Assembly (NCBI GenBank): GCA_046293175.1
Contig: JBKBPM010000001.1
Location: forward strand, 171,446 to 235,445
DNA length: 64,000 nt
Origin: Minisyncoccia bacterium
GTDB taxonomy: Bacteria; Patescibacteriota; Minisyncoccia; Phycocordibacterales; UBA918
Direction: 5' to 3'
The first letter of the stretch is position 1; every line of letters begins with the position of its first letter. The notes under the pieces were generated by a model, which searched no databases, was not told the DNA's origin, and was given only the letters and a program-made list of their open reading frames with translations. The position numbers and the translations under genes were made by a program. Positions 45,937 through 64,000 of this stretch are shown here, piece by piece.

Positions 45937-47199
45937 ATGCGCCAATCAAAACTCTTCACGAAGACAAAAAAGGAAGTACCAGCCGACGAGACGTCAAAGA
46001 ACGCTCAGCTCTTGCTGCAAGCGGGCTTTATCTACAAAAACATGGCCGGAGTGTATACTTTCTTGCCACTTGGTCTTCGGGTGATCGAAAAAATCAACAC
46101 GATTATTCGTCGTGAAATGGCAGCTATTGGTACCCAAGAAATGTACATGCCGAGTCTCCAAAACCCCGAACTCTGGAAGAAGAGTAATCGCTGGAGTGAT
46201 GAGTTGGTTGACGTGTGGTTCAAATCTGAGCTGCGCGCTGGTGGCGACGTCGGTTTTGCTTGGACGCATGAAGAGGTGATCACTGATGTAATGCGTCAAT
46301 ACGTGTCATCCTACAAAGATCTCCCATTTGCGGCGTACCACATTCAGACCAAGTTCCGTAATGAGATGCGCGCGAAGAGTGGCATCATGCGTACCCGTGA
46401 GTTTTGGATGAAAGACGCTTACTCCTTCTCAGCGGATGAAGCGCAACACAATGCCTACTACGAAGCCTGTGCGGAAGCCTATATGCGTATCTTTAATGAG
46501 ATTGGTATCGGTAACAAAACGTACAAGACTTTTGCCTCCGGTGGCGCTTTCACTAAGTTCTCGCATGAATTCCAGACCCTCGCTGAAGCCGGTGAGGATA
46601 TTGTGTATGTCTGTGAAGAGAAGGGTATCGCGGTGAATGCCGAAGTTTTGGCGGATGCGGATCTGAGCGAACTGGGTGTCACTCGCGAGGAGCTTATCGA
46701 ACGTAAGAGTATTGAAGTGGGAAATATCTTCTCTCTTGGTACCAAGTTCTCTGAAGCAATTGGATTGATGTTCAAAGATGAGGCTGGGACTGAGCGACCC
46801 GTTATTATGGGCTCATACGGTATTGGTCCCGCCCGGGCGATGGGAACCGTCGTTGATTTGCTTAGTGACGAGAAGGGTATTGTCTGGCCAAAGAGTATTG
46901 CGCCGTACCTCGTTCACCTCGTTGCACTTAATAACGAAGAAGGCGAAATCCGTGACTGGGCTGATGGTCTTTATGCGAACCTGCAGGCGGCAGGAGTTGA
47001 AGTCCTTTACGATGACCGTGATGCCCGTGCCGGTGAGAAGTTTGCTGACAGTGACCTTATTGGTCTCCCATACCGCGTGGTTGTGAGTAAGAAGGGTAAA
47101 GCTGAAGGTCTCTACGAAGTCGTCGAACGTGTAACCGGTGAGGTGAAGAAAGTAAGTGAAACCGAACTTTTTGCACTCCTTGGAGTCGCCACTGTCTAG
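45937..47199 (+). CDS. proS: prolyl-tRNA synthetase (compact form lacking the editing insertion)
   Basis: The N-terminus MRQSKLFTKTKKE and class II aaRS motifs (e.g. FRNEMRAKSGIMRTREFWMKDAYSF) are present, with a C-terminal anticodon-binding domain. The start is the internal ATG of ORF 45850..47199. Confidence 0.9.
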   Translation: MRQSKLFTKTKKEVPADETSKNAQLLLQAGFIYKNMAGVYTFLPLGLRVIEKINTIIRREMAAIGTQEMYMPSLQNPELWKKSNRWSDELVDVWFKSELRAGGDVGFAWTHEEVITDVMRQYVSSYKDLPFAAYHIQTKFRNEMRAKSGIMRTREFWMKDAYSFSADEAQHNAYYEACAEAYMRIFNEIGIGNKTYKTFASGGAFTKFSHEFQTLAEAGEDIVYVCEEKGIAVNAEVLADADLSELGVTREELIERKSIEVGNIFSLGTKFSEAIGLMFKDEAGTERPVIMGSYGIGPARAMGTVVDLLSDEKGIVWPKSIAPYLVHLVALNNEEGEIRDWADGLYANLQAAGVEVLYDDRDARAGEKFADSDLIGLPYRVVVSKKGKAEGLYEVVERVTGEVKKVSETELFALLGVATV

Positions 47200-47200
47200 T

Positions 47201-48277
47201 ATGGCTAAAATGTCGCGCCTCATCCAGAAGATTCTCGGATCTTTCTCAACCGACATTGGTATCGATCTTGGTACCGCCAATACCCTCTTGTATGTCAAAG
47301 GCAAGGGGATTGTTCTTAATGAACCAACGATTGTGGCCGTTAACAAAAAAACGGGACAACTCGTCGCGGTTGGGAATGAGGCCCGGGTGATGCAAGGCCG
47401 CACTCCGAGTCATATCGAAGTGGTGCGTCCACTGGTTGATGGCGTGATTTCAGACTTTGAGGTGACCGAAGAAATGCTCGCGTACCTTATCAACAAAGTG
47501 CGGAGTGAAATGCGTACCTTTATTGCTCCGCGTGTGTTGGTTGGTGTGCCATCAGGAATTACAAACGTGGAAATGCGGGCCGCCCGAGATGCTGCTCGCA
47601 ACGCCGGAGCGCGCGAAGTCTTTCTCATCGAAGAACCAATGGCCGCCGCCATTGGTGCAAAGCTCCCAATTGGCAAAGCGGCTGGTAACATGATTATTGA
47701 TATTGGTGGTGGAACAACTGATATTGCGGTCATCTCTATCAACGGTATCGTTGTGGCCAAAAATCTCCGGGTCGCCGGTGACCATCTCACTGCCGCTATC
47801 ATGTCGTACATCCGCGACCAGTTTAAGGTGTATGTCGGGGAAAAAACGGCCGAAGACGTGAAAATTCTTCTCGCTGCTATCGAAGCACCCGAAGGTGGGA
47901 AGGAGCATGTGGTGCGTGGTCGTGATGTGATTACCGGCCTTCCACGCGAAGTGGTTATCACCGATAGTGATGTCCGTGACGCCATAGCTTCACAAGTAGA
48001 CACTATCGTGGAGTCGGTTCGCGGTGTCCTTGAACAAACACCACCCGAGGTGATGGCTGACATTATGCAGCGTGGTATACATATATCAGGTGGTGGGGCA
48101 CTAATCCCAGGCCTCAAGCAACTCCTTGAAGAAGTGCTTGAAGTCCCCGTCATCATTGTTCCAGACCCCCTGCGGGCTGTCATCCGAGGCGCTGGTATCG
48201 TCATCGAAAACTTAGAACTCTATGAAGAATTACTTATCGACAAAGAAGGGGAGCTCTCGCCAAACCTCCTTACCTAA
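47201..48277 (+). CDS. mreB: rod shape-determining protein MreB
   Basis: The actin-like ATPase carries DIGIDLGTANTLLYVKGKGIVLNEPT and IIDIGGGTTDIAVIS. Confidence 0.9.
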   Translation: MAKMSRLIQKILGSFSTDIGIDLGTANTLLYVKGKGIVLNEPTIVAVNKKTGQLVAVGNEARVMQGRTPSHIEVVRPLVDGVISDFEVTEEMLAYLINKVRSEMRTFIAPRVLVGVPSGITNVEMRAARDAARNAGAREVFLIEEPMAAAIGAKLPIGKAAGNMIIDIGGGTTDIAVISINGIVVAKNLRVAGDHLTAAIMSYIRDQFKVYVGEKTAEDVKILLAAIEAPEGGKEHVVRGRDVITGLPREVVITDSDVRDAIASQVDTIVESVRGVLEQTPPEVMADIMQRGIHISGGGALIPGLKQLLEEVLEVPVIIVPDPLRAVIRGAGIVIENLELYEELLIDKEGELSPNLLT

Positions 48278-49181
48278 AGGGGTACGGATTACGGTACTTC
48301 TCCTGATTGCTGGACTGGTGCTTTTGTATATTCTGCCAAAGCTTGTTTTTGGCGTGGTCTCGGTTGTGCTTTATCCCTTTGAGTCGATGCGGTCATGGAT
48401 TCTTGAGTCACAGGATTCACTTCCATATTATTTGCGCGATCGCTACGAACTCATCAAACATATTGAAGAGCTAGAACAAAAAGTCGCCGTTAGTGGTGGT
48501 ACCGAAAACACTCTCACGAAACTGAAAACTGAAAACGAACAGTTCCGCCTTCTTTGTGAAGCGGTGCCAGATGAGCGCGTTATTGCTCGGGTAGTTGGTC
48601 GTCCGCCCAAACTTCCATACGATGTGGTGATGCTTGATCGTGGAAAAGACCATGGCGTAGTCGAAGAAGCGCCAGTGTTTGTAGGGAGTGACCAAATTAT
48701 TGGGTACGTCTCACGGGTGTACGAACGCACCTCACTCGTCACACTCGTATCAACCGCACAGTTTGAATCGATGGCGTACATCATTGGGCCGAATATTTAT
48801 ACTTATGCCCGTGGTGTCGGTGGGGGAATGATGCGGGTCGTCGTGCCTCAGGGTATTCCGTTGAATGTGGGTGATACGGTGATTTTGCCAGCGATTGATT
48901 CTGGTGTGTATGGCACTATTGCCTATATCGAGACTTCGCCAACCCAGCCAGAGCAATACGGTTATGTGCCGATGGCTAATAATCTTCAGAGTGTGCAGTA
49001 TGTGTCTGTAGGACGTGAGCCGATTGTGCCACATACCTATGAAGAAGCCGAAGAATTGGTCGATAATCTCCGGCACTCGCTCTTTGCAGTGAATCTGCCA
49101 CCAGGAGTTCTGGTGTCACCTGAACTCGCCAGTAGTACCATTAGTACACCATCAACGTCCAAAGCAACAACCACACCATAA
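48222..49181 (+). CDS. mreC: rod shape-determining protein MreC-like
   Basis: An N-terminal TM helix and coiled coil (IKHIEELEQKVA...NEQFRLL) precede a C-terminal beta domain. It lies immediately downstream of mreB. The start position is uncertain. Confidence 0.55.
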   Translation: MKNYLSTKKGSSRQTSLPKGVRITVLLLIAGLVLLYILPKLVFGVVSVVLYPFESMRSWILESQDSLPYYLRDRYELIKHIEELEQKVAVSGGTENTLTKLKTENEQFRLLCEAVPDERVIARVVGRPPKLPYDVVMLDRGKDHGVVEEAPVFVGSDQIIGYVSRVYERTSLVTLVSTAQFESMAYIIGPNIYTYARGVGGGMMRVVVPQGIPLNVGDTVILPAIDSGVYGTIAYIETSPTQPEQYGYVPMANNLQSVQYVSVGREPIVPHTYEEAEELVDNLRHSLFAVNLPPGVLVSPELASSTISTPSTSKATTTP

Positions 49182-49182
49182 T

Positions 49183-49446
49183 ATGTTCTCTTGGCCTCTT
49201 CGAATCATTATGTTTTTTGTTACAACACTCTGTTTTCTATACGGAGCGTATGTGGTTGGTCTTATTTTTGTTATTCTCCTCTCATTACAATATCGCGCCT
49301 ACGAATTTATAGCGCTCGCGTTCTGTATCGACTGTTACTTTTCGCCCGAGCCAATTATGTTTTGGTACACCACAGTAATTACCATTATGGTGTTTTTTGG
49401 GATTTTCCTGCAGCCGTTCATTCGTCGTAATGGACGGTATGAATAA
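49183..49446 (+). CDS. small polytopic membrane protein at the MreD position
   Basis: An 87-aa hydrophobic protein between mreC and mrdA. The assignment rests on synteny only. Confidence 0.3.
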   Translation: MFSWPLRIIMFFVTTLCFLYGAYVVGLIFVILLSLQYRAYEFIALAFCIDCYFSPEPIMFWYTTVITIMVFFGIFLQPFIRRNGRYE

Positions 49447-49451
49447 TAATT

Positions 49452-51152
49452 ATGTGGCGACGCAAAACACAACAAACTGTTGAGTTCGATGAAATCCTCA
49501 TGGATGTATCGAACCTCCCAGCCTTTAATACTGGTCGCCTTGAGGGACGACGCGAACTACCAATTACCAAGCGGAGTATCTTTCTCGTTGGTCTCATTTT
49601 TAGTTTTATTGCTCTTGCCTTTCTCTCAAAGATTTATAGTTTACAAATAGTGGAGGGTGCCAAGTACCGCGAGATTAGTGAAAACAACAGTCTCAATCGT
49701 ACCGTTATTATTGCTGAGCGAGGCGTCGTGTATGACCGTCGTGGTGAACTAGTGATTTGGAACGAGCCTGATTTTACAGGGCAATACTCGTTTCCTGTTC
49801 GGGCTTACACCGATCGTCTTGGTATGGGGCAACTCATTGGGTACGTGAGTTATCCGCAAAAAGATAAAAAGGGCGTCTACTACCGTACCGAGTACGTTGG
49901 CCGGACCGGGGTGGAAAGTGCATTTGAGTCATACTTGCGCGGCCAAAATGGCGAGCAGATAATCGAAGAGGATGTGCATGGCACCGTGGTGGGAGAATAC
50001 GCGCTTAAAGCGCCTGTGCCCGGCGGTGAACTGCATCTCTCGGTTGATGCGGGGCTCTCTGAGGCCATGTACCAGATTATTTCGACCTCCAGTGCCCAGG
50101 CTGGTTTCCGGAGTGGAGCGGGTGCCATTATGGATGTATATACCGGTGAGATTATCGCGATGACCAGTTTTCCATCTTATGACCCAGAGGTAATGGCCGA
50201 TGGCGACAATACCGATTTGATTTCGTCTTACAACACTGACGACCGCCTACCGTTCCTCAATAAGGTGGTGAGTGGTGTCTATACCCCAGGATCAATCGTA
50301 AAGCCGTTTGTGGCGTATGGAGCACTTGCCGAAGATATCATTAGTCCAAACAAAGAAATTGTTTCAACCGGTGAAATTGTTATTCCAAATCCATACAATC
50401 CCGATCAACCTTCGATTTTTCGTGACTGGCGCGCTCATGGAGTGATGACGATGCGTGAAGCAATTGCGTTTTCATCTAACGTTTATTTCTATATTGTCGG
50501 TGGTGGCTTTGGAGATCAAAAGGGACTGGGTATCACAAAGCTTGCTGAGTACTATCGCAAATTTGGGATGGGGAGTATCACCGGTATCAATCTAGCTACC
50601 GAACAAGAAGGGGTGGTGCCTGACCCAGAGTGGAAACAAAAAACCTTTAATGATGATTGGCGGCTTGGGGACACGTACTTCACCTCTATTGGGCAGTATG
50701 GCTTTCAGGTGACACCACTGCAGATGCTTCGAGCGTATGCTGCGCTCGCTAATGGTGGGAAACTCCTTACTCCACATGTCGTGAAGGGACAAGTGAGTTC
50801 TTCGACAGATCTCGGCTTAAATCCCAATTATCTAAAAATCATACACGAAGGTATGCGTAAGAGCGTGATCTTTCCTGGTGGTACGGCACGTGGTCTCGAA
50901 CGCAGTGATGTAGCGGTAGCGGCAAAATCTGGTACTGCCGAAATTGGTGCTGGTAACGCGTACGTGAATTCTTGGGCGGCTGGTTTTTGGCCATACGAAG
51001 AACCACGCTACGCTTTTATTCTCATGATGGATAAAGCGCCACGGAGTAATGCGCTTGGTGCGACTCGTATCATGGGTGGGGTAATGGAATGGATAGCGCA
51101 GAATCGACCGGAGTATCTAAACCCAACCAGTACGCCGATGGTAGGTGGATAA
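49452..51152 (+). CDS. mrdA: penicillin-binding protein 2 (elongasome transpeptidase)
   Basis: An N-terminal TM helix is followed by the three PBP boxes: SxxK (PGSIVKPF), SxN (FSSNVYF) and KTG (KSGTAE). Confidence 0.85.
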   Translation: MWRRKTQQTVEFDEILMDVSNLPAFNTGRLEGRRELPITKRSIFLVGLIFSFIALAFLSKIYSLQIVEGAKYREISENNSLNRTVIIAERGVVYDRRGELVIWNEPDFTGQYSFPVRAYTDRLGMGQLIGYVSYPQKDKKGVYYRTEYVGRTGVESAFESYLRGQNGEQIIEEDVHGTVVGEYALKAPVPGGELHLSVDAGLSEAMYQIISTSSAQAGFRSGAGAIMDVYTGEIIAMTSFPSYDPEVMADGDNTDLISSYNTDDRLPFLNKVVSGVYTPGSIVKPFVAYGALAEDIISPNKEIVSTGEIVIPNPYNPDQPSIFRDWRAHGVMTMREAIAFSSNVYFYIVGGGFGDQKGLGITKLAEYYRKFGMGSITGINLATEQEGVVPDPEWKQKTFNDDWRLGDTYFTSIGQYGFQVTPLQMLRAYAALANGGKLLTPHVVKGQVSSSTDLGLNPNYLKIIHEGMRKSVIFPGGTARGLERSDVAVAAKSGTAEIGAGNAYVNSWAAGFWPYEEPRYAFILMMDKAPRSNALGATRIMGGVMEWIAQNRPEYLNPTSTPMVGG

Positions 51153-51161
51153 GTCGCTGTG

Positions 51162-51189
51162 TTGACCATCACCCGGAAGTCCGTATAAT
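51162..51189 (+). promoter_or_regulatory. sigma70 promoter for greA (TTGACC-16-TATAAT)
   Basis: TTGACC at 51162-51167 is separated by a 16-nt spacer from TATAAT at 51184-51189. A second -10-like TATAAC (51206-51211) lies 7 nt before the ATG. Confidence 0.5.
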
Positions 51190-51218
51190 AGTGTTACATT
51201 ACTTGTATAACGTTCTAT

Positions 51219-51689
51219 ATGACTGACCAGCAATCGTTCCTTACTGCCGAAAAGTTCGCAGAATTGAAACAAGAACTCGACCACCTGAAGACTGTCCGCC
51301 GCAAAGAAGTGGCAGAGTCACTCGAATACGCTCGCAGTCTCGGTGACCTCTCAGAAAATGCTGAATACCAAGAAGCCCGTGATATGCAGGCTGCTATTGA
51401 GGAACGTATCACTCACCTCGAAAAAGTTATTAAAGAAGCGAAGATTGTCTCGCACGACAAGAAAGGTGACATCGTAGTTATGGGTTCTACCGTAACGATT
51501 GTGAAGGACAAAGAAAAAGATAGTCGCACCTACACAATGGTTGGTTCAGAAGAAGCGAACATCCACGAGCATAAGCTTTCATATCTCTCACCACTTGGTG
51601 AAGCTCTCATGGGGAAGGCGAAGGGTGATGAGTTTGTGTTTGAGACTCCAGCGGGCAAACAAAAGTACAAAGTACTTAAGGTCGAATAA
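51219..51689 (+). CDS. greA: transcription elongation factor GreA
   Basis: An N-terminal coiled coil containing SENAEYQEARDMQ is followed by a C-terminal FKBP-like domain. Confidence 0.9.
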   Translation: MTDQQSFLTAEKFAELKQELDHLKTVRRKEVAESLEYARSLGDLSENAEYQEARDMQAAIEERITHLEKVIKEAKIVSHDKKGDIVVMGSTVTIVKDKEKDSRTYTMVGSEEANIHEHKLSYLSPLGEALMGKAKGDEFVFETPAGKQKYKVLKVE

Positions 51690-51742
51690 CAGTTGTCCAT
51701 AAAATGTCCAGCTACGGTGTTGCACTACGCTCGACGTCAGTC

Positions 51743-51765
51743 ATCGTACAATAAGTACGCCTCCT
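51743..51765. repeat. copy 5 of the recurring motif (GTACA-N5-GTACGCCTCC variant)
   Basis: CATCGTACAATAAGTACGCCTCC lies in the greA-lysS spacer. Compare copy 1 at 4084. Confidence 0.45.
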
Positions 51766-51870
51766 TCCGCCTCGCTTATGCGCCTTGTATCTGGAGCATT
51801 TTCTGAACAACTTGAGTGATATAATGAGTCTTACAGTAATACTTGAGAGTTTGAATATGTAGACTACAAC

Positions 51871-51904
51871 ACAAAGAGTGGCACCTGCGGGTGCCGCTCT
51901 TTGT
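51871..51904 (+). promoter_or_regulatory. 15-bp stem hairpin in the lysS 5' leader
   Basis: ACAAAGAGTGGCACC-TGCG-GGTGCCGCTCTTTGT lies 45 nt upstream of the lysS ATG. It sits downstream of an extended -10-like TGATATAAT at 51821-51829. Confidence 0.35.
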
Positions 51905-51949
51905 GTATCTCTTTATAAAAAGCAAAAATTAAGCTACTATAGCAGTATT

Positions 51950-53443
51950 ATGTCGAGTGAAATTATCGAAGAGCGCCGTAAGAAGCGCGAACTATTACGA
52001 GCGGCGGGCATGGATCCGTATACGGCGAAGACCTCAAAGACCCATACAGGAACGGAGGTTTTGGCACAGTTTGATGCGCTTGTAGCTGGGAATACGGCGG
52101 TCACTATCGCTGGGCGCGTCATGGCAATTCGTCTTCATGGCGGTTCGGCGTTTGTCGATGTCTTTGATGGTACAGAGAAGCTCCAGCTCTTTTTAGCCAA
52201 AGACCAACTCGGTGATGATCTTTTCAATCTCTTTGCTGACGCCATTGATGCCGGCGACTTTATCGAAGCCACTGGCGTGCCGTTTGTCACCAAGCGAGAG
52301 ACGAAGGCTGTGGGTGTTACCACTTGGCGTGTGCTCACCAAGGCGCTTGAATCTATTCCGTCTGAGCACTTCGGAATCAAAGACGAAGAAGCACGCTACC
52401 GCAAGCGTTATCTCGACATTCTCCTCAATCCTGAGCTCCACGACCTCTTTGTGAAGAAGGCGAAATTTTGGGCAGTGATTCGTCGGTTTATGGTGGATCA
52501 CGGCTTCCTCGAGGTCGAGACCCCAACGCTTGAGGTCACGACTGGTGGTGCTGAAGCAAGGCCTTTTAAGACCTGGCACAACGACTACGATATGCCAGTC
52601 TATATGCGTATCTGTATTGGTGAACTCTGGCAGAAGCGTCTCATGGCCGCCGGCTACCCTAAGACGTTTGAAATAGGTCGCGCGTACCGCAACGAGGGGA
52701 GTAGCCCAGAACACCTTCAGGAGTTCACGAACCTTGAGTTCTACTGGGCCTACGCCGACTACCGCGATGGGATGACCTTCGTCCGTGATCTTTATCGTAC
52801 GATTGCGAAGGAAGTATTTGGTCAAACTAAGTTCGAGATGCGTGGTCACACGTTTGATCTCGCTGATGAGTGGGTGGAGATAGATTACACAGAGACTATT
52901 AAGGACAAAACCGGTATCGATATTCTCACCGCGACTGAAAGCGAGATGGAGCAGAAGCTCGTGGAGCTCGGCGTAAAGTATGAAGGCCAAAATCGCGAAC
53001 GCCTGACCGATACATTGTGGAAATACTGCCGCAAGCAAATCGCGGGTCCAGCGTTCTTGGTGAATCATCCAAAGCTTGTTGCGCCACTTGCGAAGACTCG
53101 TCCAGGCACTGAGACGGTGGAGATGTTCCAGCCGATTATTGCTGGTAGTGAAGTTGGTCGTGGCTACAGTGAACTTAATGACCCAGATGATCAACGGGCA
53201 CGCTTTGAAGTCCAGAAGGCACTTCTTGAAGCCGGGGATGAAGAGGCGATGATGGCCGACTTTGAATTCGTTGAGATGCTCGAGTACGGTATGCCGCCAA
53301 CTTGTGGCTACGGCTTTGGTGACCGCCTCTTTGCCTTCTTGGCCGGTTTGCCACTGCGTGAGACCCAGATGTTCCCACTCATGAAGCCAAAGCAGGAAGC
53401 AGGGAATGTACCGCCAGAGAATTGTGAAGCGTGCGATTCATAA
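51950..53443 (+). CDS. lysS: lysyl-tRNA synthetase (class II)
   Basis: An N-terminal OB domain and a class II core are present (...FLEVETPTLEVTTGGAEARPF..., GRAYRNEG, FTNLEFYWAY). The start is the internal ATG (MSSEIIEERRKKRE). Confidence 0.9.
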   Translation: MSSEIIEERRKKRELLRAAGMDPYTAKTSKTHTGTEVLAQFDALVAGNTAVTIAGRVMAIRLHGGSAFVDVFDGTEKLQLFLAKDQLGDDLFNLFADAIDAGDFIEATGVPFVTKRETKAVGVTTWRVLTKALESIPSEHFGIKDEEARYRKRYLDILLNPELHDLFVKKAKFWAVIRRFMVDHGFLEVETPTLEVTTGGAEARPFKTWHNDYDMPVYMRICIGELWQKRLMAAGYPKTFEIGRAYRNEGSSPEHLQEFTNLEFYWAYADYRDGMTFVRDLYRTIAKEVFGQTKFEMRGHTFDLADEWVEIDYTETIKDKTGIDILTATESEMEQKLVELGVKYEGQNRERLTDTLWKYCRKQIAGPAFLVNHPKLVAPLAKTRPGTETVEMFQPIIAGSEVGRGYSELNDPDDQRARFEVQKALLEAGDEEAMMADFEFVEMLEYGMPPTCGYGFGDRLFAFLAGLPLRETQMFPLMKPKQEAGNVPPENCEACDS

Positions 53444-53465
53444 ATAGATTTCACAAAATAGGGAA

Positions 53466-53495
53466 AGCCCGGGCGTTTCCGCGCGGGCTTTTCGT
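53466..53495 (+). terminator. GC-rich hairpin after lysS
   Basis: AAAGCCCGGGCG-TTTC-CGCGCGGGCTTTTCG forms an imperfect stem followed by TTTTCGTTT. Confidence 0.45.
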
Positions 53496-53846
53496 TTGCT
53501 TGATGGGTCGCTTCAGCGACGCCAGAACATGAGGCGCTTCCATCTCGACTGCCGAGGCAGCATCGCTTCAGCCGTGAACTCGCCGTCCTTGAAGGTCAAG
53601 ACCGACCGGACGCCCGGCCAGCTCAAGTTCTGCGAGGATCATGTGGGCAACGCAGAAGCCTTCGGTCGCTGCTTGCTCAGGTGCAATGCCGTTTCTGGCG
53701 AAGACTGCCAAGGCAGCTTCGAACTTTGTCGCCGGCAAGCCGATGTTGCCAGAAATCATCACGTAGCGATCTTGCTGCGTGAGCACGAGCTGATTGGCTT
53801 GAGCCACCGGCTGTGCAGGATCGCTGGGGCGAGTTGATTCTGTCTC

Positions 53847-54776: not shown

Positions 54777-57700
54777 ATGAATTTTATTTTCATGAGGAGG
54801 TTTCATTCATTTTCTAATATGCAAAGTCGTTATTCTTTGGTTGCGGTAGCAAGGACAGTGTTAGTATCGTTTCTAACACTGTCTTTTTTGTTAGTGTCGA
54901 GTATTCCTGCCGAAGTTTTTGCTGAGGAAAGTGCTGGTACAACCGAGATATCAAATGCTACCACTCCACCCGCGGACACCCCTGTTAGTGAAATCGAGAA
55001 TACGAATCCTGAAACTGTAACACCAAATGATGATACAGAGCCTCCAGTTGAAGAATCTGCAGAACAGCTTACAGAAGTTTCTGATCCCGAAGCAGTAGAT
55101 ACAGAAGAGGATCCTGAAAAAGCACCCGTAGAAGAATTAGAGCCAGAATCAATGGCAGCCATGGGTGCAGGTGGTGCTTCTGGGTCTGGTGACGCTTCAC
55201 CACTCAAGACTTCTTTAGTTGATTCAACCAGCGGCTCATTTCAAACAAATTATGGCATTGTGGTTCCGCCTGGTCGAAACGGCATGCAACCGAACCTGAG
55301 TCTGGGGTACGACGGGGGAGCAAACAGTCAAACAAGTGTATTTGGGTACGGTTGGGATATTAGTATCCCATACATTTCACGTATGAATAAAACTGGTAGT
55401 GAAAATCTCTACGCCACTTCCAGTTATTTCTACTCGTCACTTTCTGGCGAATTGGTTCCTACTGGAGTAACTAATGAATATCGTGCTCGAGTCGAATCAG
55501 GAAGTTTCCTAAAATATGTATATTCCAATAGTGTTTGGACAGTAACAGACAAGTCTGGCCGGACGTATACATTTGGCTCAGCGAGTACTACCAGGCAAGA
55601 TAACCCTAGTGATAGTAACCAGATATACCGCTGGTATATTGCCGAAGAGCGTGACACTAATAATAATGCAATCAGTTACAGTTACTATAAAAATGCAGGG
55701 CAGATTTATCCTGATACCATTTATTACACCAAAAATGGTGCAGATAATGGTATTTTTTCAGTACAGTTTGAACGTGAATCACGGACAGATGTCGTAACAT
55801 CGTACCAAGCTCGTTTTGCTGTGAAAAGTAACTATCGAATTAAAAAGATAGTTGCTTATGTTGATGGTGTGGCTGCACGAAGCTATGCGCTTGCTTATAC
55901 AAATGGTGATAACCAAAAACGTTCACTTCTTTCAACAATTACTGAATCTGGCACTGAAGGAAGTGTTACAACTACGCGGCTAGCTCAATCATTCGAATAC
56001 AAAAATACTAGCACTGAGGGTTGGACTTCAACATCAACATGGTCTACTCCCGAACCATTTTCAAGCAATAGTCTTGATACAGGGTTGCGACTAGTTGACG
56101 TAAACGGTGACAGTTACCAAGATTTAGTTCGCTTCTACGGCACTCAAGGTGGTCAAGAATTTAAATCAATTTATATTAATAACGGATTAAATGGTTGGAC
56201 TAGTACAACGACTTGGAACTGGTCAGATATGAACTTATGGTTTTCAGTGGAAGGTTCTACACAAAATTCACGTAATGATTATGGAACAAGATTCCTTGAT
56301 GTTAATGGTGATGGTTTAACCGATGCTATTACTGGATTTGATAACCTTGATGGTTGGAGTGACTACAAGGTTGTCTATATTAATAATGGAAGCGGCTGGG
56401 CAAGTTCAACCTGGGTTTTGCCAGTGTTTATTACAAAAAAATTAGGCGGTAGCTCAACTTATGACTTGGGTGTACGAACAGGAGATATTAATGGTGATAG
56501 ATTGCCAGATATAGTCGTATCTTACGTAAATGGTTCTGGTGCTACAAGTCAAGAAGTTTACTTAAATAATGGTCAAAATGGGTGGAGCCAAACAACATCA
56601 TGGGTAGTGCCTGAGCCATTTACAAATTGTGCAACTTGTACAAATCCTGGTCTAGATTTAGGAACACACCTAATTGATGTTAATGGTGATGGTCTCGATG
56701 ATGTTGTTAGAAGCTACTCAACATCCGGAACAAGCACCAATAAAGTTTATCTCAATACTGGTACAAATTGGGTACTGGACAGCAGTGTCCAGTTACCTAC
56801 TTACTTTGTTATGACAGGCGACTCTGGCCTACGTTGGGTAGAAGTAAATGGTGATGGTTTGATTGATCTTGTTAGAAACGCAACTACATCTAGAGTAACT
56901 TATTTGAATAGTGGTACAGGTTGGACAAGCCTTGGTCAGCTTCCACCAACTCAAATGCCATTTATTACAACATCAGGTGATAGTGGTGTTCGTGCCGTTG
57001 ATATTGACGGAGATGGTCAATCAGATCTAATTGGAAATACTGGCAGCACTACTTATCTTAATAGTCGAGGTTTTGGTGATTCTCTAACACAAATCACTTT
57101 TCCTCAAGGTGGTAAAATTATAGCTTCATATCAGGGTTCTGCTGAATATCGAAGCGGAAGTCAAATCTTAAACCCAAAAATTCCCTACACCTTCACAACA
57201 GTCTCACAGATACAATATGACTCCAATAATGATGCTATATGGACTGAATCATATCTATACGAAGATGGATTCTATCACTATGCGAGTACGAGTTTTCGTG
57301 ACCGTACTTTTTCAGGTTTTGGCAAAATAACCAAAACCAGTCCTCGTGCTAAGACAGTATCGTATTACCACCAGAATAATGACACTAATAGTAGCAATGG
57401 TGAGACGACAGATTCATACGCCAAGATTGGGCTTGAGTATAAAACGTTCGTCAACGACCTTGCTGGCAATAATTATATTACAAATGTGACAAAATGGTCT
57501 GAATCAGCATTGCCCGGTGGCGCGTCATATATAAGCCAACAGTCACAGGCAACACTATCGCATGATGGCGATAGTGATCATCGGGACATGGCTGTTGAAT
57601 ATAGCTACGATACCAATAATGGTAATCTGCTACAAAAAATTGAATATGGCGAAGTTACTGGAGCTACAGATGGCACCTTTACTGATACCGGCACGGACAA

Positions 57701-60700
57701 ATATACTACCGCATTTACATACGGCGCCAGCTCAACAAATCCGTTATTTACACTAACGATTCAAGCTTCAACTACAGACCAGCAAAACGTCCTAACAAGA
57801 TTAACTAAATACTATTACGATAATAGCACTTTTGGCAGCGTGACTAAAGGTAACCTTACCAAACAAGAAGACTGGGCCACTTCAACCACATATAGTACCC
57901 GTCAATGGGAATATAATACTTTCGGCCTAGTAGGTACGACAACTGATCCACGCGGTAATGTATCAAGTGTGCGATATGACTCTCATAATTTATATCCCTC
58001 ACTCGCTAAAAATGCCCTTGGACACATAACGACCTCAACTTATGATTATTCAAACGGACAGGTCAAAACAAATATTGATGCTAATAGCGCACTGTATACT
58101 TTCAATTATGATGGCCTTGATAGACTGCTTGAAGAGTATGTGCCTGATCCAAACAATGGTAGCTCCACTGTGCTTAAAAATGCATACACCTATTTCGACA
58201 CCAGTTTGCCATATCGTGTTCACCAGTCACGATACTTAAACCAGTATTTAACAGTAGATTCTAATACATATCTCGATGGATTTGGACAAGTCATTCAAAC
58301 TCGTCAAGATATGGAACAGTTCAATAAGTATGCGGTAACTGACTTTGTGTACGATGATGGTGTGTTGATTCGTGAATCCGTCCCGTACCAAGCAAATGGA
58401 TCTGGCTATAGTCCGTCAACGAGCAATACAAACCGACTACGTACTTATAGTTATGATGCGCTGGATCGAAAAATTACCATAGCTGATATGCGTGGTACGA
58501 GCACCCTCGCATACGATCAATGGCAGACGCTTGCGACTGATCCATTGTCTCGTACAAAAAAGACAAATAATGATGCGTACGGAAACCTCGTGAGTGTAAT
58601 TGAACGCAATAGTGGTGTTGATTACACGACAACGTATACCTATGACTACGGAGGTAAACTGACCAGCCTCACAGACGCCCTTAGTAATGTACGTAAATTC
58701 ACTTACGATGGATTAGGTCGACGTCTCTATGCAGAAGATCTTCATGTGGCGACCAGTAGTTCGTTTGGTGTTTGGCGCTATCAATACGACCTGGCAGGTA
58801 ATCTCGGTACTTCTACCAACCCGCGAGGACAAATTGTAGCGTATACGTACGATGCACTTAATCGAACATTGACCGAAAATGCAGCTAGTTCAACCGGAGT
58901 TGAAACTTCTTATACCTACGACTCCTGTACTAAGGGTGTTGGTAAACTTTGTACAGTTGTAGTTGCATTTGCCACTACAACCTATGGTTACAACAACCTT
59001 GGTTCGATGGCAACTGAAACCAAACAAATTCGCGGAACAACCTACACAACCAGTTACCAGTATGACCGACAAGGTAATCAGACAATGGTGCAGTACCCTG
59101 ACAATTCCGTAGTTCGCAATACCTATAATAATGCTGGCTTACTCGATAAAGTTGAACAAAAAGAAAATGGCGGACTATTCAAGAACGTTGTTACAGCTCT
59201 AGATTACAGTCCTGCCCAGAAAGTGACCCTAGAAGCTATAGCGAACGGAGCAACTACTACCAAAACCTACGATTCAATACATCGTCTTACTAATATTTTG
59301 ACCACAACCACTGGAACCACTACACCAAGTCAATGTCCTAGTTATATTCTTGGATCCGGTCTTGATACTAACCTGATATCGTATTGGAACCATAATGAGT
59401 ATTCTTCTGGTTCAGGCGCAGTTACTAGGTTTGATAGTAAAGGAACTAATCACCTAACAGATTTCAACACAACTCTGTCGACTGTAGGTATGATTGATAC
59501 TGCGTCAGATTTGGAAGTTGCAAATACAGAACGACTTACTATTACAGATGCGGCACAGACAGGTCTTGACACTCAAAATGACATGACCTTCGCAACTTGG
59601 CTTAAGTTTGAGAGTCTGCCTGGTACAAACGGACGTATGTACGTAGTCCAAAAAGAAGATATCTTCAAATTTGCACCAGATTTCGATGTAAATGGTACTG
59701 ACTACTTGCGATTGTATCTCCGTGATGCATCAGGTTACTATCACAATTCGGTTTCGTGGGTGCCATTCGTTGATACATGGTATCATGTTGCATTTACCAG
59801 AAATCAAACAACCGGAGCCCTTAAATTCTATGTGAATGGTCAACAGCAGGGTTCAACAATAATGACGGGTAGAACAGCATCTCTGTTAAATTCTGTTGAA
59901 GATTTCAATATCGGTGCTAATCCTGGAGAATTTGATGGTGCGGTTGATGAGACAGCAATTTGGTCACGCGTACTGACTGATACTGAAATCGCCTGTCTCT
60001 ATAATAATGGTGGTGGCATTTCATACAGCTTGGGTGGAATAGGTGGTGGCGGTGAAGCAATGAGACTTCTTGCCATGTCTGAGTCTGAACAAATACTGAA
60101 ATCCGCCGACTATTCGGGATCTGATACACAAGAAATAACTGTCAAAACCGATATAACTGCTTCTTCGACAATTGCAGCCTATGATGTATATAAACAGCAA
60201 CTTAACTCAGCTGATGCAAGTGAAAAGGCAACTCTAAAAGGCCAGATGATTGCTGAAAAAGTAATATCAGGCAGACGAGTTGACCGAAAAGAGTTTAAGA
60301 TAGATTTGTTTGGTGTTGAGCCAATAGATGGAGGACTACAGGTGTACCTTCGCGCCTTTGATGCCCAAGGCAATCAACTTGGCTTTGGTAAAGATGGCAC
60401 GATTGATATTGAACGCTTCAAGATATACAATCCGCCAATTAGCGTGCCTGATGGTACTTACCGAGATGAAGAAATTGAAAAACTTAGTGGAGGTACCCAA
60501 ATTATTAAGTCCCCTAACTTTAAAGATGATCCTGAGGAAGCTTTATATCAGGTATTAGAACAAACAATCAAACTTACTGGTAAGAGTGGTACAAAAATCG
60601 TCCCTAAAAAAATCGGTCGAACCACTAGTGTGTTCTATCCAGATGCGAACCCAGAGAGTTCTTCAGTTGACGGATGGACTCAGTATGAAAGTACACAAAT

Positions 60701-62804
60701 TTCGTGGTCAGCTATTCGCACGGCAAATGGAACTGGATCTGGAGATACTGATGCAACACGATACGTATTGGCAGCTGCCGCTGGTACAGCGACTAGTACA
60801 TTTAATAACCTTCGTCGTGGAATCTTCGTCTTTAACACTGCACCGATTGCAGACACCGATTACATTAGTGGAGCGACACTCTCATTTGTTGCTACAGCAA
60901 AAGGTGATCATGATGCAATAAATGAACGCTTTGCGAACCTGACGAGTGCGTCAACTGCATCAAATGTCGCGATTGCTGCTTCTGATTATCAGTCTCAGTC
61001 GGTACATACCACAAAACTTTCTACGGATAAAAGCATCAAATACGATATAGTTGCTGATAGTAGCACCTATACTGACTGGACACTAAATAGCGATGGTTTG
61101 GCTAACATCAGTACCAGTTCGGTTTCTAAGTTTGGTCTAAGATTTGTTGAAGATATTAGCAGTACTACCATGCCATGGAACTCTGGTTACAATTACGGCA
61201 TATCGATCAGACTGGCAGATACAGCCAATACTTCACTTGATCCAAAACTAGTAGTTGAACACAGTGCTACTTCATCACCAGTAGCAACAACCACCACCAT
61301 TCAAAACATCGCCTACACCTACGATGCGGTGGATAATATTACGCAGATTACTGACACATCAACAACTTTAGCAGCGAAGACTGTACAATTTACTTATGAT
61401 GACCTTAACCGCCTCACGAGAGCCTCAACTACAGTTGCTTCTTCTACACCATTCCTAGAGCAGTACACATACAATGCGATTGGTAATCTACTGACCAAAA
61501 CTGGACAGGGGACATACAGCTACGCTGGTACTGGCTTCGCGAACCCACACGCCCCAACCACCATTGGTACTTCCACCCTCACCTACGACCAAAATGGCAA
61601 CCTCGCCTCATACAACGGTGTGACGTATACCAGTAACTACAAAAACCAACTCACCACCCTCACCAAAAACAGCACCACCACCAAGTACACCTACGACCAC
61701 CAGGGCCAGCGCCTCGAAAAAGCCCGGGGCACCGGTACTACCACCTACGCCTCTGGCGGGTACGAAGTAGCACCAACCGGCGTCACCAAATACATCTACG
61801 CTGGTGGGGAACTAGTAGCCACCATCGCTGGTATAGGAACTACTACTACTACTACTACCTCCTATATCCATCGGGACCACCTATCCTCTACGAATGTAAC
61901 TACGAACCAAAGTGGAGGAGTATCTACCGTCTTAGACTACTACCCGTACGGCTCCACTCGTATCGAGACTGGCACACCACCTCAGAAACAATATATTGGC
62001 CAATACGATGACTCTGAATCAGATCTGGCGTACCTTAATGCGAGGTACTACGACCCAACACGTGGCCAATTTACCTCACAAGACCCCATGCACTGGGCGA
62101 TACCTGCCAATCTCATCGTCGACCCACAATTACAGAACTCGTATGGGTATGCCAAAAATAATCCGATTATCTATAAGGATCCAAATGGTGATATTCCTGT
62201 ACTAGTTGCTCTGTTTGGGGGCGCTGCACTGGCTGGTGCGATTGGTCAAGGTATCGAAGATATTGCGTCAGGTCAACTTTCTGGTTGGCAAGATTATGCA
62301 GGTGCAGCTGCTGGTGGTATGACAGGAATGGCTGCAGCACTAACAACGAAAAATCCTTTTGCCATTGGTGGAGTAACCTCGGGTAGTGAACAATTGTATA
62401 CAAATCTTCTTACAGGTGAAGAGGCAATGAGTGATGTGTTTTCTGAATCAGGTAAAGGCATAATTTTTGGTGGATTTATTGATTTGCGTATCCCTCTACT
62501 GTCTAAAGGTGCTAATAATATTTCAGCACGTACTCAAAGCATTATCACGAAGGTATCAAATGGTACAGTGTCAAATGCTTCTTTAAAAACTGTAAGAAAT
62601 GTCAGTATTTCTCAGTCTGTAAACAGTACCGCTCAATCTACATACAACGGTGTTGAGCATCGTTTATCAAACTCACAAGTAAAAAATGCGTCAAACAATA
62701 TAGAAAAGGCAACCAAAGCTTTTCAGAGCGGTAATTATACTGTAAGTCTCCGTTATTTGGAGAAAGCCAATCAGAATTTAAACAGTAACAAAAAGAAAAA
62801 ATAA
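54777..62804 (+). CDS. Rhs/YD-repeat polymorphic toxin (2675 aa) with a signal peptide, SpvB-like N-terminal region, FG-GAP-like repeats, YD repeats interrupted by a LamG-like domain, an Rhs core terminus and a Gly-zipper C-terminal domain
   Basis: The SpvB-like region reads ...GRNGMQPNLSLGYDGGANSQTSVFGYGWDISIPYISR. Six or more VDVNGDGLxD repeats span 56.09-57.04 kb. Many YTYDxxGNL YD repeats follow. A LamG-like block (...WYHVAFTRNQTTGALKFYVNGQQQG...DETAIWSRVLTDTEI) sits at about 59.33-60.02 kb. The core terminus reads ...LAYLNARYYDPTRGQFTSQDPM. The C-terminal ~235 aa are Gly/Ala-rich (GGAALAGAIGQGI...GAAAGGMTGMAAAL). Confidence 0.85.
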   Translation: MNFIFMRRFHSFSNMQSRYSLVAVARTVLVSFLTLSFLLVSSIPAEVFAEESAGTTEISNATTPPADTPVSEIENTNPETVTPNDDTEPPVEESAEQLTEVSDPEAVDTEEDPEKAPVEELEPESMAAMGAGGASGSGDASPLKTSLVDSTSGSFQTNYGIVVPPGRNGMQPNLSLGYDGGANSQTSVFGYGWDISIPYISRMNKTGSENLYATSSYFYSSLSGELVPTGVTNEYRARVESGSFLKYVYSNSVWTVTDKSGRTYTFGSASTTRQDNPSDSNQIYRWYIAEERDTNNNAISYSYYKNAGQIYPDTIYYTKNGADNGIFSVQFERESRTDVVTSYQARFAVKSNYRIKKIVAYVDGVAARSYALAYTNGDNQKRSLLSTITESGTEGSVTTTRLAQSFEYKNTSTEGWTSTSTWSTPEPFSSNSLDTGLRLVDVNGDSYQDLVRFYGTQGGQEFKSIYINNGLNGWTSTTTWNWSDMNLWFSVEGSTQNSRNDYGTRFLDVNGDGLTDAITGFDNLDGWSDYKVVYINNGSGWASSTWVLPVFITKKLGGSSTYDLGVRTGDINGDRLPDIVVSYVNGSGATSQEVYLNNGQNGWSQTTSWVVPEPFTNCATCTNPGLDLGTHLIDVNGDGLDDVVRSYSTSGTSTNKVYLNTGTNWVLDSSVQLPTYFVMTGDSGLRWVEVNGDGLIDLVRNATTSRVTYLNSGTGWTSLGQLPPTQMPFITTSGDSGVRAVDIDGDGQSDLIGNTGSTTYLNSRGFGDSLTQITFPQGGKIIASYQGSAEYRSGSQILNPKIPYTFTTVSQIQYDSNNDAIWTESYLYEDGFYHYASTSFRDRTFSGFGKITKTSPRAKTVSYYHQNNDTNSSNGETTDSYAKIGLEYKTFVNDLAGNNYITNVTKWSESALPGGASYISQQSQATLSHDGDSDHRDMAVEYSYDTNNGNLLQKIEYGEVTGATDGTFTDTGTDKYTTAFTYGASSTNPLFTLTIQASTTDQQNVLTRLTKYYYDNSTFGSVTKGNLTKQEDWATSTTYSTRQWEYNTFGLVGTTTDPRGNVSSVRYDSHNLYPSLAKNALGHITTSTYDYSNGQVKTNIDANSALYTFNYDGLDRLLEEYVPDPNNGSSTVLKNAYTYFDTSLPYRVHQSRYLNQYLTVDSNTYLDGFGQVIQTRQDMEQFNKYAVTDFVYDDGVLIRESVPYQANGSGYSPSTSNTNRLRTYSYDALDRKITIADMRGTSTLAYDQWQTLATDPLSRTKKTNNDAYGNLVSVIERNSGVDYTTTYTYDYGGKLTSLTDALSNVRKFTYDGLGRRLYAEDLHVATSSSFGVWRYQYDLAGNLGTSTNPRGQIVAYTYDALNRTLTENAASSTGVETSYTYDSCTKGVGKLCTVVVAFATTTYGYNNLGSMATETKQIRGTTYTTSYQYDRQGNQTMVQYPDNSVVRNTYNNAGLLDKVEQKENGGLFKNVVTALDYSPAQKVTLEAIANGATTTKTYDSIHRLTNILTTTTGTTTPSQCPSYILGSGLDTNLISYWNHNEYSSGSGAVTRFDSKGTNHLTDFNTTLSTVGMIDTASDLEVANTERLTITDAAQTGLDTQNDMTFATWLKFESLPGTNGRMYVVQKEDIFKFAPDFDVNGTDYLRLYLRDASGYYHNSVSWVPFVDTWYHVAFTRNQTTGALKFYVNGQQQGSTIMTGRTASLLNSVEDFNIGANPGEFDGAVDETAIWSRVLTDTEIACLYNNGGGISYSLGGIGGGGEAMRLLAMSESEQILKSADYSGSDTQEITVKTDITASSTIAAYDVYKQQLNSADASEKATLKGQMIAEKVISGRRVDRKEFKIDLFGVEPIDGGLQVYLRAFDAQGNQLGFGKDGTIDIERFKIYNPPISVPDGTYRDEEIEKLSGGTQIIKSPNFKDDPEEALYQVLEQTIKLTGKSGTKIVPKKIGRTTSVFYPDANPESSSVDGWTQYESTQISWSAIRTANGTGSGDTDATRYVLAAAAGTATSTFNNLRRGIFVFNTAPIADTDYISGATLSFVATAKGDHDAINERFANLTSASTASNVAIAASDYQSQSVHTTKLSTDKSIKYDIVADSSTYTDWTLNSDGLANISTSSVSKFGLRFVEDISSTTMPWNSGYNYGISIRLADTANTSLDPKLVVEHSATSSPVATTTTIQNIAYTYDAVDNITQITDTSTTLAAKTVQFTYDDLNRLTRASTTVASSTPFLEQYTYNAIGNLLTKTGQGTYSYAGTGFANPHAPTTIGTSTLTYDQNGNLASYNGVTYTSNYKNQLTTLTKNSTTTKYTYDHQGQRLEKARGTGTTTYASGGYEVAPTGVTKYIYAGGELVATIAGIGTTTTTTTSYIHRDHLSSTNVTTNQSGGVSTVLDYYPYGSTRIETGTPPQKQYIGQYDDSESDLAYLNARYYDPTRGQFTSQDPMHWAIPANLIVDPQLQNSYGYAKNNPIIYKDPNGDIPVLVALFGGAALAGAIGQGIEDIASGQLSGWQDYAGAAAGGMTGMAAALTTKNPFAIGGVTSGSEQLYTNLLTGEEAMSDVFSESGKGIIFGGFIDLRIPLLSKGANNISARTQSIITKVSNGTVSNASLKTVRNVSISQSVNSTAQSTYNGVEHRLSNSQVKNASNNIEKATKAFQSGNYTVSLRYLEKANQNLNSNKKKK

Positions 62805-62805
62805 T

Positions 62806-63360
62806 ATGTTGAACTATATTCCACGAAATTGGGTGTGGTATGTTGTTGCCTTAATATTGTTTGGTCCATATATTCTGATTAACGTTATGGAAAACGATAT
62901 GCTAGCTAGAATAATTGGTTTAGGTTTTATTCCAAATGGCGTAGTCTTAATATTACTTTATACAATTCTTAGTAAAGGATATGATTGGATTCAACCAACA
63001 GAGTGGTTTGAAAAAAAACTTCAAAAAGTAAATAAAGGAAAAATACTCATCTTCAGTAAAATATTTCTTTTTGGAGTATTAGTTCTTTTTCTACCCTTGT
63101 CATTAGGCTATTTCAAAGATGTTGTTTTGGTAAAAGATGGTTTAGCCCCAATGACATTTATTGCAACAATTTCTGATATACGAGTTGGTAAAGGTGCTCT
63201 AAATCTATATATTTATTTTGATGATCAGAATGAGAAAATGTCTGCTTATTATTTCTCCCGCAACACCTTTGAAGAAGGGTACACATATAAGTTCTGGTAC
63301 TTGCCAAATACTCGTCAGATAGTTAAAGCAGAACTCATATCCACCAACGAAACACAATGA
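62806..63360 (+). CDS. small multi-TM membrane protein, candidate immunity protein for the Rhs C-terminal domain
   Basis: A 184-aa protein with three TM helices begins 2 nt after the rhs stop. It is very AT-rich, and its stop overlaps the start of the downstream fragment (ATGA). Confidence 0.45.
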   Translation: MLNYIPRNWVWYVVALILFGPYILINVMENDMLARIIGLGFIPNGVVLILLYTILSKGYDWIQPTEWFEKKLQKVNKGKILIFSKIFLFGVLVLFLPLSLGYFKDVVLVKDGLAPMTFIATISDIRVGKGALNLYIYFDDQNEKMSAYYFSRNTFEEGYTYKFWYLPNTRQIVKAELISTNETQ

Positions 63361-63716
63361 CTACCCTCCAGAAAAATAGTACCACCACCTCATACACCTA
63401 CGACCACCTCGGCCAGCGTCTCGAAAAAGCCCGTGGTACCGGTACTACCACGTATGTGGGCGGTGGGTACGAAGTAGCACCAACTGGAGTCACCAAGTAT
63501 ATCTACGCTGGTGGGGAACTGGTAGCCACCATCGCTGGTATAGGAACTACTACTACCTCCTATATCCATCGGGACCACCTATCCTCTACGAATGTAACTA
63601 CGAACCAAAGTGGAGGAGTATCTACCGTCTTAGACTACTACCCGTACGGCTCCACTTGTATCGATATGGGTATACACCGAGTTAGCGGAACGAAATATTT
63701 AATTTATCAAATTTAA
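63357..63716 (+). pseudogene. orphan Rhs core fragment (119 aa) homologous to residues ~2290-2390 of the main Rhs protein
   Basis: TTLQKNSTTTSYTYDHLGQRLEKARGTGTTTYVGGGYEVAPTGVTKYIYAGGELVATIAGIGTTTTSYIHRDHLSSTNVTTNQSGGVSTVLDYYPYGST is near-identical to the main gene. The fragment diverges and terminates before the DPxG core end, with no toxin domain. Confidence 0.6.
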
Positions 63717-63726
63717 ACAGACTCCA

Positions 63727-63752
63727 AAAACCCACCAATTGGTGGTTTTTTA
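63727..63752 (+). terminator. Rho-independent terminator
   Basis: AAAACCCACCAATTGGTGGTTTTTT contains a palindromic stem followed by a T-run. Confidence 0.6.
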
Positions 63753-64000
63753 TTTTGTATCCAATAATCCCCAAAATGTGTGCACAAGTGGCTTGTGGGT
63801 GGGATGAAGTGGTGTATAGTGTAGTTGTGGTGGGAGATAGTGGTATAGAACGAAAGTTCTAGACAGATCCACAACTATCTCTGACAGCAGTCAGCATCGC
63901 TCCACCGATGGTGGCTGGTGTCAGGGATGGAAGTGGAATAGCTATCAAGACAACATTATGTTAATCGGGGAATATCGCCACACACTTGATCCTAAGAAAC

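Follow-up and report, generated by a model that had tools for sequence, protein, structure and literature searches.

Organization of the rhs locus

The DNA analyzed here is a 64,000-nt stretch of contig JBKBPM010000001.1 from a Minisyncoccia bacterium, referred to as the window. Near its 3′ end lies an rhs polymorphic toxin locus that consists of a large rhs gene, a putative toxin and immunity pair, and a short terminal piece of rhs sequence. This tip array sits between a UbiA-type prenyltransferase gene and mraZ on a Candidatus Paceibacteria chromosome of the Candidate Phyla Radiation (CPR), and its features are all on the forward strand. Related loci in other assemblies are designated by L numbers and their proteins by P numbers.

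The main rhs gene (54777-62804) is one open reading frame (ORF) of 2,675 amino acids according to the ORF list and its translation. It contains RHS/YD shell repeats (PF05593, 6e-14, four matched stretches; TIGR01643 also matches) and a Rhs-associated core domain (TIGR03696) at 61938-62189, which scores 63 bits against a cutoff of 32.5 and corresponds to residues 388-471 of a sub-protein starting at 60777. The core ends with NPIIYKDPNGD, a PxxxxDPxG-type motif in which the final L of PxxxxDPxGL is replaced by D, and the sequences of relatives part from the main gene directly past this motif. The layout beyond it is that of a putative variable C-terminal toxin (CT) followed by a small membrane-type ORF. 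The candidate toxin is 204 residues long (62190-62804), begins with a Gly/Ala-rich hydrophobic segment, which may hint at membrane targeting, has a third-position GC content (GC3) of 0.24, and gave no Pfam match above cutoffs and no PDB sequence match. It is 65% identical in amino acid sequence to the CT of an orphan, P0001, in locus L002. The putative immunity gene (62806-63360) encodes 184 residues with three hydrophobic segments resembling transmembrane helices, has a GC3 of 0.26, and also lacks a Pfam match above cutoffs. Its homologues trail the same toxin type in L002/L023 (53% amino acid identity), and one stands alone behind a toxin remnant in L005 (58%). An exact copy of the gene is found on Logan unitig L001.

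Downstream of the immunity gene is a 3′-truncated rhs core fragment (63357-63684) with high identity to the main gene up to position 63664. A 119-codon ORF (63357-63716) runs across it. The ATG of this ORF overlaps the immunity stop codon (ATGA), its tail, GIHRVSGTKYLIYQI and stop, is not rhs-like, and its homologues are P0121, P0122, and P0123. The rhs locus ends with a terminator-like hairpin, CCACCAATTGGTGG, followed by a T-run (63732-63752; hairpin 63732-63745), which is conserved in L020, L022, and L025. The mraZ upstream region and the start of mraZ occupy 63761-64000, with the mraZ ATG placed at 63958 by homology to annotated syntenic loci.

A direct repeat between the main gene and the fragment

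By blastn, 61643-61966 in the main gene matches 63350-63664 downstream as a direct repeat, with 87.7% identity across 325 nt, and a repeat search recovers the same pair. The upstream copy (61650-61966) lies inside the main gene and covers the last YD-shell strands up to YYPYGSTRIE; the downstream copy (63357-63664) has the same orientation. A base-by-base map divides the repeat into two parts. The first, 61650-61814, has 29 mismatches in 165 nt (82% identity). The second, 61815-61958, aligns with 63522-63656 without a single mismatch, and the sole difference is a 9-nt indel that leaves (ACT)6 at 61839-61856 and (ACT)3 at 63546-63554. The longest ungapped identity is 111 nt (61848-61958 and 63546-63656). 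The first mismatch past the tract is at 61959/63657, and similarity then decays. The split of 29/165 against 0/135 mismatches gives a Fisher p of 9e-9, so the lopsided spread across the repeat is not due to chance.

An initial annotation of this DNA had described a direct repeat between the main gene and a downstream piece, and blastn, the repeat search, and the base map agree on its existence. The start given for the downstream piece, 63369, is corrected to 63350-63357, and the end of the matched pair moves from 63646 to 63656. The block of complete identity, put at about 102 nt, is real but was understated; it is 111 nt without gaps and belongs to a 144-nt tract that carries the 9-nt indel. 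The translations agree with the divergence that had been noted beyond this block, STRIETG in the main gene against STCIDMG in the fragment. The similarity is long and of high identity, not the short or weak match that had been named as a refutation.

Repeats carry a general risk of misassembly, and this is all that favors an assembler-made collapse or duplication as the source of the repeat. We consider that explanation extremely improbable. Mismatches at 29 of the first 165 positions and the 9-nt indel distinguish the two copies, and the source contig spans 676 kb. The k-mer graph of run SRR31360863 (Logan) independently yields a unitig that matches 61929-63551 at 100% identity and connects the toxin and immunity gene with the beginning of the fragment. 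It stops exactly 30 nt into the identical tract at either end, and the branching falls on the edges of the tract, as it should in a k=31 graph at a true repeat. Four other assemblies have the fragment at the equivalent site, and ENA, JGI, and Logan assemblies all contain corresponding fragments. The artefact at a contig end that the initial annotation had named as a way to refute its proposal is contradicted by the 82% identity of the 5′ part, the unitig breaks, and these other assemblies.

Content of the terminal fragment

The fragment covers about the last 105-110 shell codons and breaks off within the initial ~17 residues of a core domain that is 76 residues long. Past 63664, alignment with relatives reveals degenerate homology to about 63684 (ending at about 61988 on the main-gene side) with a 4-nt deletion that shifts the frame. 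The truncation junction reads PPARQ followed by TGTACAAAATATTT, and nothing beyond it is rhs-like. The homology stops ~60 codons ahead of the DPxGL motif, and the fragment has neither this motif nor a distinct toxin; a non-rhs tail of 10-17 codons and a stop codon follow. The ORF at 63357-63716 has no Pfam or NCBIfam family match. No immunity gene lies behind the fragment: the terminator hairpin is followed by the mraZ leader, and the ORF list has no entry between them. An Rfam search of 63600-64000 returned only sub-threshold, terminator-like matches.

Orphan rhs-CT/rhsI modules are recognized by three features (PMC3150448, PMC3967940). The fragment has one of them, a 5′-truncated rhs piece homologous to the main core ahead of DPxGL, and lacks the other two. 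Because DPxG, toxin, and immunity gene are missing, it falls outside the definition of such a module and, judged by its content, is better named a vestigial core fragment. The earlier statement that the orphan terminates without a toxin domain is borne out by the early stop and the lack of a family match. The displaced-orphan model of C-terminal switching proposed with it is retained for the clade, where L002 and L006/L011 have the appropriate architecture, but not for this fragment as a switchable module.

A hit in the repeat search raised the idea that the tail of the fragment (63674-63731) descends from a toxin 3′-end, but the support was too weak and the idea was dropped. Of 2,000 shuffled sequences, 31 scored as well as its best local match to the 3′ end of the main toxin, and comparison with three other toxin ends gave no significant match.

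Conservation of the fragment in related lineages

The fragment is found at the same site next to mraZ, with the same truncation junction, in L020, L022, and L023-25, which represent at least three other Paceibacteria lineages. L020 (Logan SRR17591869) is 94% identical to 46983-53833, a 6.9-kb block of housekeeping genes, and has the same order of genes from ProRS through UbiA to MraZ. Its 117-codon fragment, P0123, lies directly ahead of the terminator and mraZ. L022 and L026 carry fragment P0121, and L023-25 carry P0122. In L023-25, the fragment trails a 195-residue homologue of the window's immunity gene with the same ATGA overlap, and the arrangement is 86% identical to that in the window. 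In L005 (GCA_013565675.1), a more distant syntenic locus, the fragment is reduced to 25 nt. These comparisons indicate that the truncation is older than the split of the L020, L022, L023-25, and window lineages.

P0121 has 175 residues and joins main-like sequence to the fragment tail, which made it a candidate for a main/orphan fusion. The candidate was rejected when the upstream genes on the L022 contig and the overlapping L026 identified it as a longer terminal fragment. In L022 (1-405) and L026 (1-1407), which have a near-identical mraZ leader, the terminal fragment extends 155 nt farther 5′, to the equivalent of 61495. Its upstream neighbors there are an unrelated 153-residue immunity-like gene and a minus-strand gene with a DHHA1 domain, not UbiA or rhs.

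The mraZ leader is the clonal frame on the 3′ side of the variable locus. The mraZ upstream region (63761-63957) is 96-100% identical in L020, L022, and L025 and ~87% identical in the distant L005; it is more conserved than housekeeping coding sequence (94%). Its GTGG/GTGGG repeats are possible operator boxes for MraZ; a long imperfect hairpin lies at ~63883-63927, and Rfam gives no match.

The identical tract as a recombination footprint

Eight homologous copies from other loci were compared over the two parts of the repeat. Their DNA is 62-85% identical in 61815-61958 and 67-93% identical in 61672-61814, an interval in which the main gene and the fragment of the window are 85% identical. Because the segment that is perfect in the window is less conserved among relatives than the divergent part, 61815-61958 is read as a tract of recent gene conversion or crossover between main gene and fragment, not as a stretch of unusual conservation. 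Purifying selection cannot account for zero synonymous differences in the tract; recent conversion or crossover can.

The process also shows at the population level. When the window is compared with L022 and L025, identity is 77-88% over the rhs-derived portion of the fragment and 96-100% over the tail, terminator, and mraZ leader from 63674 on, which places a sharp identity step at 63665-63673. Between lineages, the terminal fragments are stop-free and have synonymous divergence (dS) of 0.57-1.5 with nonsynonymous to synonymous ratios (dN/dS) of 0.02-0.10. An old pseudogene should not look like this, and we attribute the pattern to repeated overwriting from functional alleles.

The (ACT)6/(ACT)3 difference inside the tract is a microsatellite of threonine codons and probably arose by replication slippage after the conversion event.

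Tip switching among related loci

The toxin type of the window occurs in a different context in L002. There, the 385-residue ORF P0001 begins at the shell position at which the window's fragment also begins, encodes a toxin of the window's type, and has the corresponding immunity type behind it. A different toxin/immunity pair lies upstream of P0001, and L002 overlaps L023 at 99.5%. The toxin that is armed in the window thus appears as a silent orphan in L002. A second case is the main CT of L006, a full-length gene, which is orphan 1 in L011. The L011 array consists of the main gene, two immunity-like genes, a complete orphan with an immunity gene, and a truncated terminal orphan. These two pairs, the window CT with P0001 of L002 and the L006 CT with orphan 1 of L011, reproduce the attached and unattached tips by which Jackson 2009 recognized displacement. 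L005 has a row of immunity genes, each behind a short toxin-tail remnant, and one of them is the homologue of the window's immunity gene. The shared cassettes argue that recombination-driven Rhs tip switching occurs in this clade.

Some relatives have cassettes without the large gene. L020/L003 and L005 lack the 6.9-kb rhs body (54777-61500 in the window), and a core fragment and toxin follow within 30-85 nt of UbiA (L020 7898-7925; L005 876-960). A leader, CAGCCTAGYAAGCTAC, with in-frame stops precedes the orphans in L003/L020 and both L011 orphans (L003 91-106; L011 4635-4650 and 6709-6724). This leader was not found in the window, even with three mismatches allowed. Its occurrence in two loci and organisms suggests that the cassettes spread as whole units whose 5′ end is constant.

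Unrelated toxins of the clade (62700-62801 of the window and the C-termini of P0001-P0004, including a GIY-YIG-type toxin) share a ~35-residue tail, A..AL..GNY..A...L.KA...L..KKK. In L005, this tail is the part that survives ahead of the stranded immunity genes.

A model for the terminal repeat

The fragment is, with good probability, what tip displacement left behind, and together with the main-gene copy it now brackets a toxin/immunity cassette of 1.7 kb that could be excised. By the known displacement route, a cassette made of a core piece, toxin, and immunity gene would have entered the conserved shell end of rhs by recombination. The toxin that once stood behind the fragment would later have been deleted, and the truncation junction shared with other lineages makes this deletion an old one. 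The fragment may continue to recombine with functional rhs copies. In the present arrangement, repeats of ~0.3 kb (~310 nt) bracket the core end, toxin, and immunity gene, and RecA-type recombination between them could loop out a circle, the intermediate in the Jackson 2009 model, of 1,698 or 1,707 bp, its size being set by the position of the crossover relative to the ACT indel. We infer from the models in PMC2935791, PMC3967940, and PMC3482391 that the circle would hold one repeat copy and the cassette. The rhs gene left behind would end in the fragment tail without core end, toxin, or immunity gene, and the cell would therefore be disarmed and, among armed siblings, vulnerable. A single crossover of the circle into a recipient with the order body-repeat-tail would recreate the exact structure of the window. 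Alternatively, the two repeats could serve as arms in a double crossover with array DNA from a relative that swaps the cassette. Excision, integration, and any present-day activity are what the architecture would permit.

The initial annotation had proposed that the repeat can delete or exchange the current module. Both outcomes are compatible with the model, the first by excision and the second by a two-arm swap. The fragment itself would not furnish a new toxin: since it has neither toxin nor core end, recombination between main gene and fragment alone could only delete or excise and would supply no other toxin. Several observations weigh against the model. Neither a deletion ("empty site") variant nor a circle junction was found in the databases. 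The variants that the initial annotation had suggested looking for, an orphan fused to the main core or a deleted module, are likewise missing among database proteins, and the only proteins with the fragment tail, P0121 and P0122, are terminal fragments and not main-gene fusions. The step in identity between L020 and the window lies past the terminator (~63760), not at the truncation point, and therefore the fragment can also travel as a passenger rather than as a 3′ arm. Finally, the terminal fragment of L020 is without a close donor in its own locus (dS 2.0 to its neighbor), yet its ORF is intact.

The same conservation could be that of a protein. If the 117-120-residue ORF were a real, selected small gene with translation coupled to the immunity gene, its function would explain the stop-free frame in four lineages, the conserved ATG, the ATGA start/stop overlap in the window and L023, and a dN/dS of 0.02-0.16 at a dS of ~1. 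We find this improbable. The product would be an isolated piece of β-shell wall without a family signature, and its C-terminus is not conserved: compared with L020, the window, L022, and L025 have a 4-nt deletion that shifts the reading frame (IHRVSGTKYLIYQI versus TPPARQLYKIFD). The fragment is down to 25 nt in L005, and the terminal fragment of L011 is cut elsewhere and has in-frame stops ahead of it. The identical tract and the identity step point to recombinational overwriting, which by itself lowers dN/dS. A different account keeps the displacement and makes it recent: the gene's own previous tip would have been shunted downstream by the present cassette and then mostly deleted in a short time. 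The order of main gene, toxin, immunity gene, and core fragment fits one round of displacement, and the fragment begins exactly at the immunity stop codon. Against a recent event, the fragment is not specific to the window. It occurs with the same junction next to mraZ in lineages whose flanks are at least 6% diverged and whose upstream cassettes differ, and L023-25 already have the series of this immunity type, ATGA, and fragment, with 86% identity. The 5′ 165 nt of the fragment are also 18% diverged from the main gene. Because several lineages have the truncation junction in common, a recently displaced copy is very unlikely, and the older relic that brackets an excisable cassette is preferred.

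A more far-reaching idea is that the terminal fragment is more than debris and is maintained as an "acceptor" repeat. As a fixed 3′ arm of homology beside mraZ, it would work with the main-gene core so that CPR bacteria could capture, excise, and swap toxin/immunity cassettes by general recombination alone. We offer this tentatively, as possible but rather doubtful. If it were true, the locus would resemble an integron in its handling of cassettes but would need no integrase, and the coding-like conservation of the fragment would reflect selection for recombination competence.

Comparison with known polymorphic toxin loci

The locus resembles the enterobacterial rhs loci described in Jackson 2009 (PMC2935791). 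[quoted passage not shown] The direct core repeats of those loci could also loop out a circle with a core piece, tip, and immunity gene. The displaced fragments of Jackson 2009 keep the full core repeat and a recognizable tip, whereas the fragment in the window has neither. The window further differs in its CPR host, in showing no sign of a type VI secretion system, in the Sec-type N-terminus and TcB-like front end of the main protein, and in a repeat limited to the last ~110 shell codons.

A further parallel is the orphan rhs-CT/rhsI of Salmonella Typhimurium LT2 (Koskiniemi 2014, PMC3967940). There, too, rhs-main and a downstream fragment share a direct repeat, and a recombination event between its copies deletes the main CT together with the immunity gene. 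The LT2 repeat is 522 bp at 95% identity, compared with ~310 bp at 88% and a 144-nt perfect tract in the window. Recombination in LT2 yields a functional chimera with the orphan toxin, whereas the predicted product here is a truncated rhs gene without toxin or core end. Degenerate terminal pieces are known from cdiA-CT fragments without VENN and cdiI (Poole 2011, PMC3150448), which have also lost motif and immunity gene and stand at the end of orphan arrays, although they belong to the CdiA filament family and not to the Rhs shell. The Neisseria mafB 3′ cassettes, in the summary given in PMC2935791, consist of a full gene followed by silent C-terminal cassettes between conserved segments, with tips attached or unattached depending on the strain; the family is unrelated, and this comparison draws on the literature alone.

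A literature search on Rhs orphans, Patescibacteria, and the Candidate Phyla Radiation returned nothing specific on Rhs orphan arrays in CPR. The repeat and fragment are an ordinary component of polymorphic toxin loci, found here in the Paceibacteria, where these loci are little studied, and they suggest that the Rhs tip switching known from Enterobacteria also operates in ultra-small Paceibacteria genomes. The window is a compact natural example with one armed gene, one cassette, one terminal repeat, and a visible tract that appears to be fresh conversion, and close relatives keep immunity genes without the 6.9-kb delivery body. The locus is relevant to how episymbiotic bacteria compete and leaves the existing picture unchanged. 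For annotation, the label that suits the 119-codon ORF is rhs remnant, not gene.

Composition of the rhs body and neighboring features

The N-terminus of the main rhs protein has a signal or transmembrane segment of Sec type (hydrophobic residues 19-49). Its Pfam domains are SpvB (PF03534), FG-GAP (PF13517), TcdB_midN (PF12256; the TcB-like part), RHS/YD repeats (PF05593), and a Laminin_G_3 insert (PF13385). The gene is a mosaic in GC3: 0.30 in the body, 0.5-0.78 in 61500-61976, and 0.20-0.26 in the toxin (from ~62175) and immunity gene. The adjoining housekeeping genes are at 0.46-0.55 (genome about 0.5). A low-GC tip is a classical signature of these loci (PMC2935791), and the toxin and immunity gene of the window are similar.

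Identity to L020 drops from 91% to 84% across UbiA toward the rhs locus, which could reflect an imported tract or just a less constrained gene. A remnant of the rhs promoter or 5′ region was sought in L005 and L020, and nothing significant was found. The low GC3 of the body and its absence from the 94%-identical L020 fit import or loss alike.

A tRNA scan of the window for integration-site candidates found none, and a near-identity search of a plasmid collection with 61400-64000 gave no match. The housekeeping genes upstream of the locus encode ProRS, MreB, MreC, PBP2, GreA, LysRS, and the UbiA-type prenyltransferase. Elsewhere in the window, a 921-residue ORF (34394-37159) has weak matches to TraD/VirD4-type coupling proteins and is followed by large ORFs without a family match. 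This region may be a type IV secretion or DNA-uptake island.

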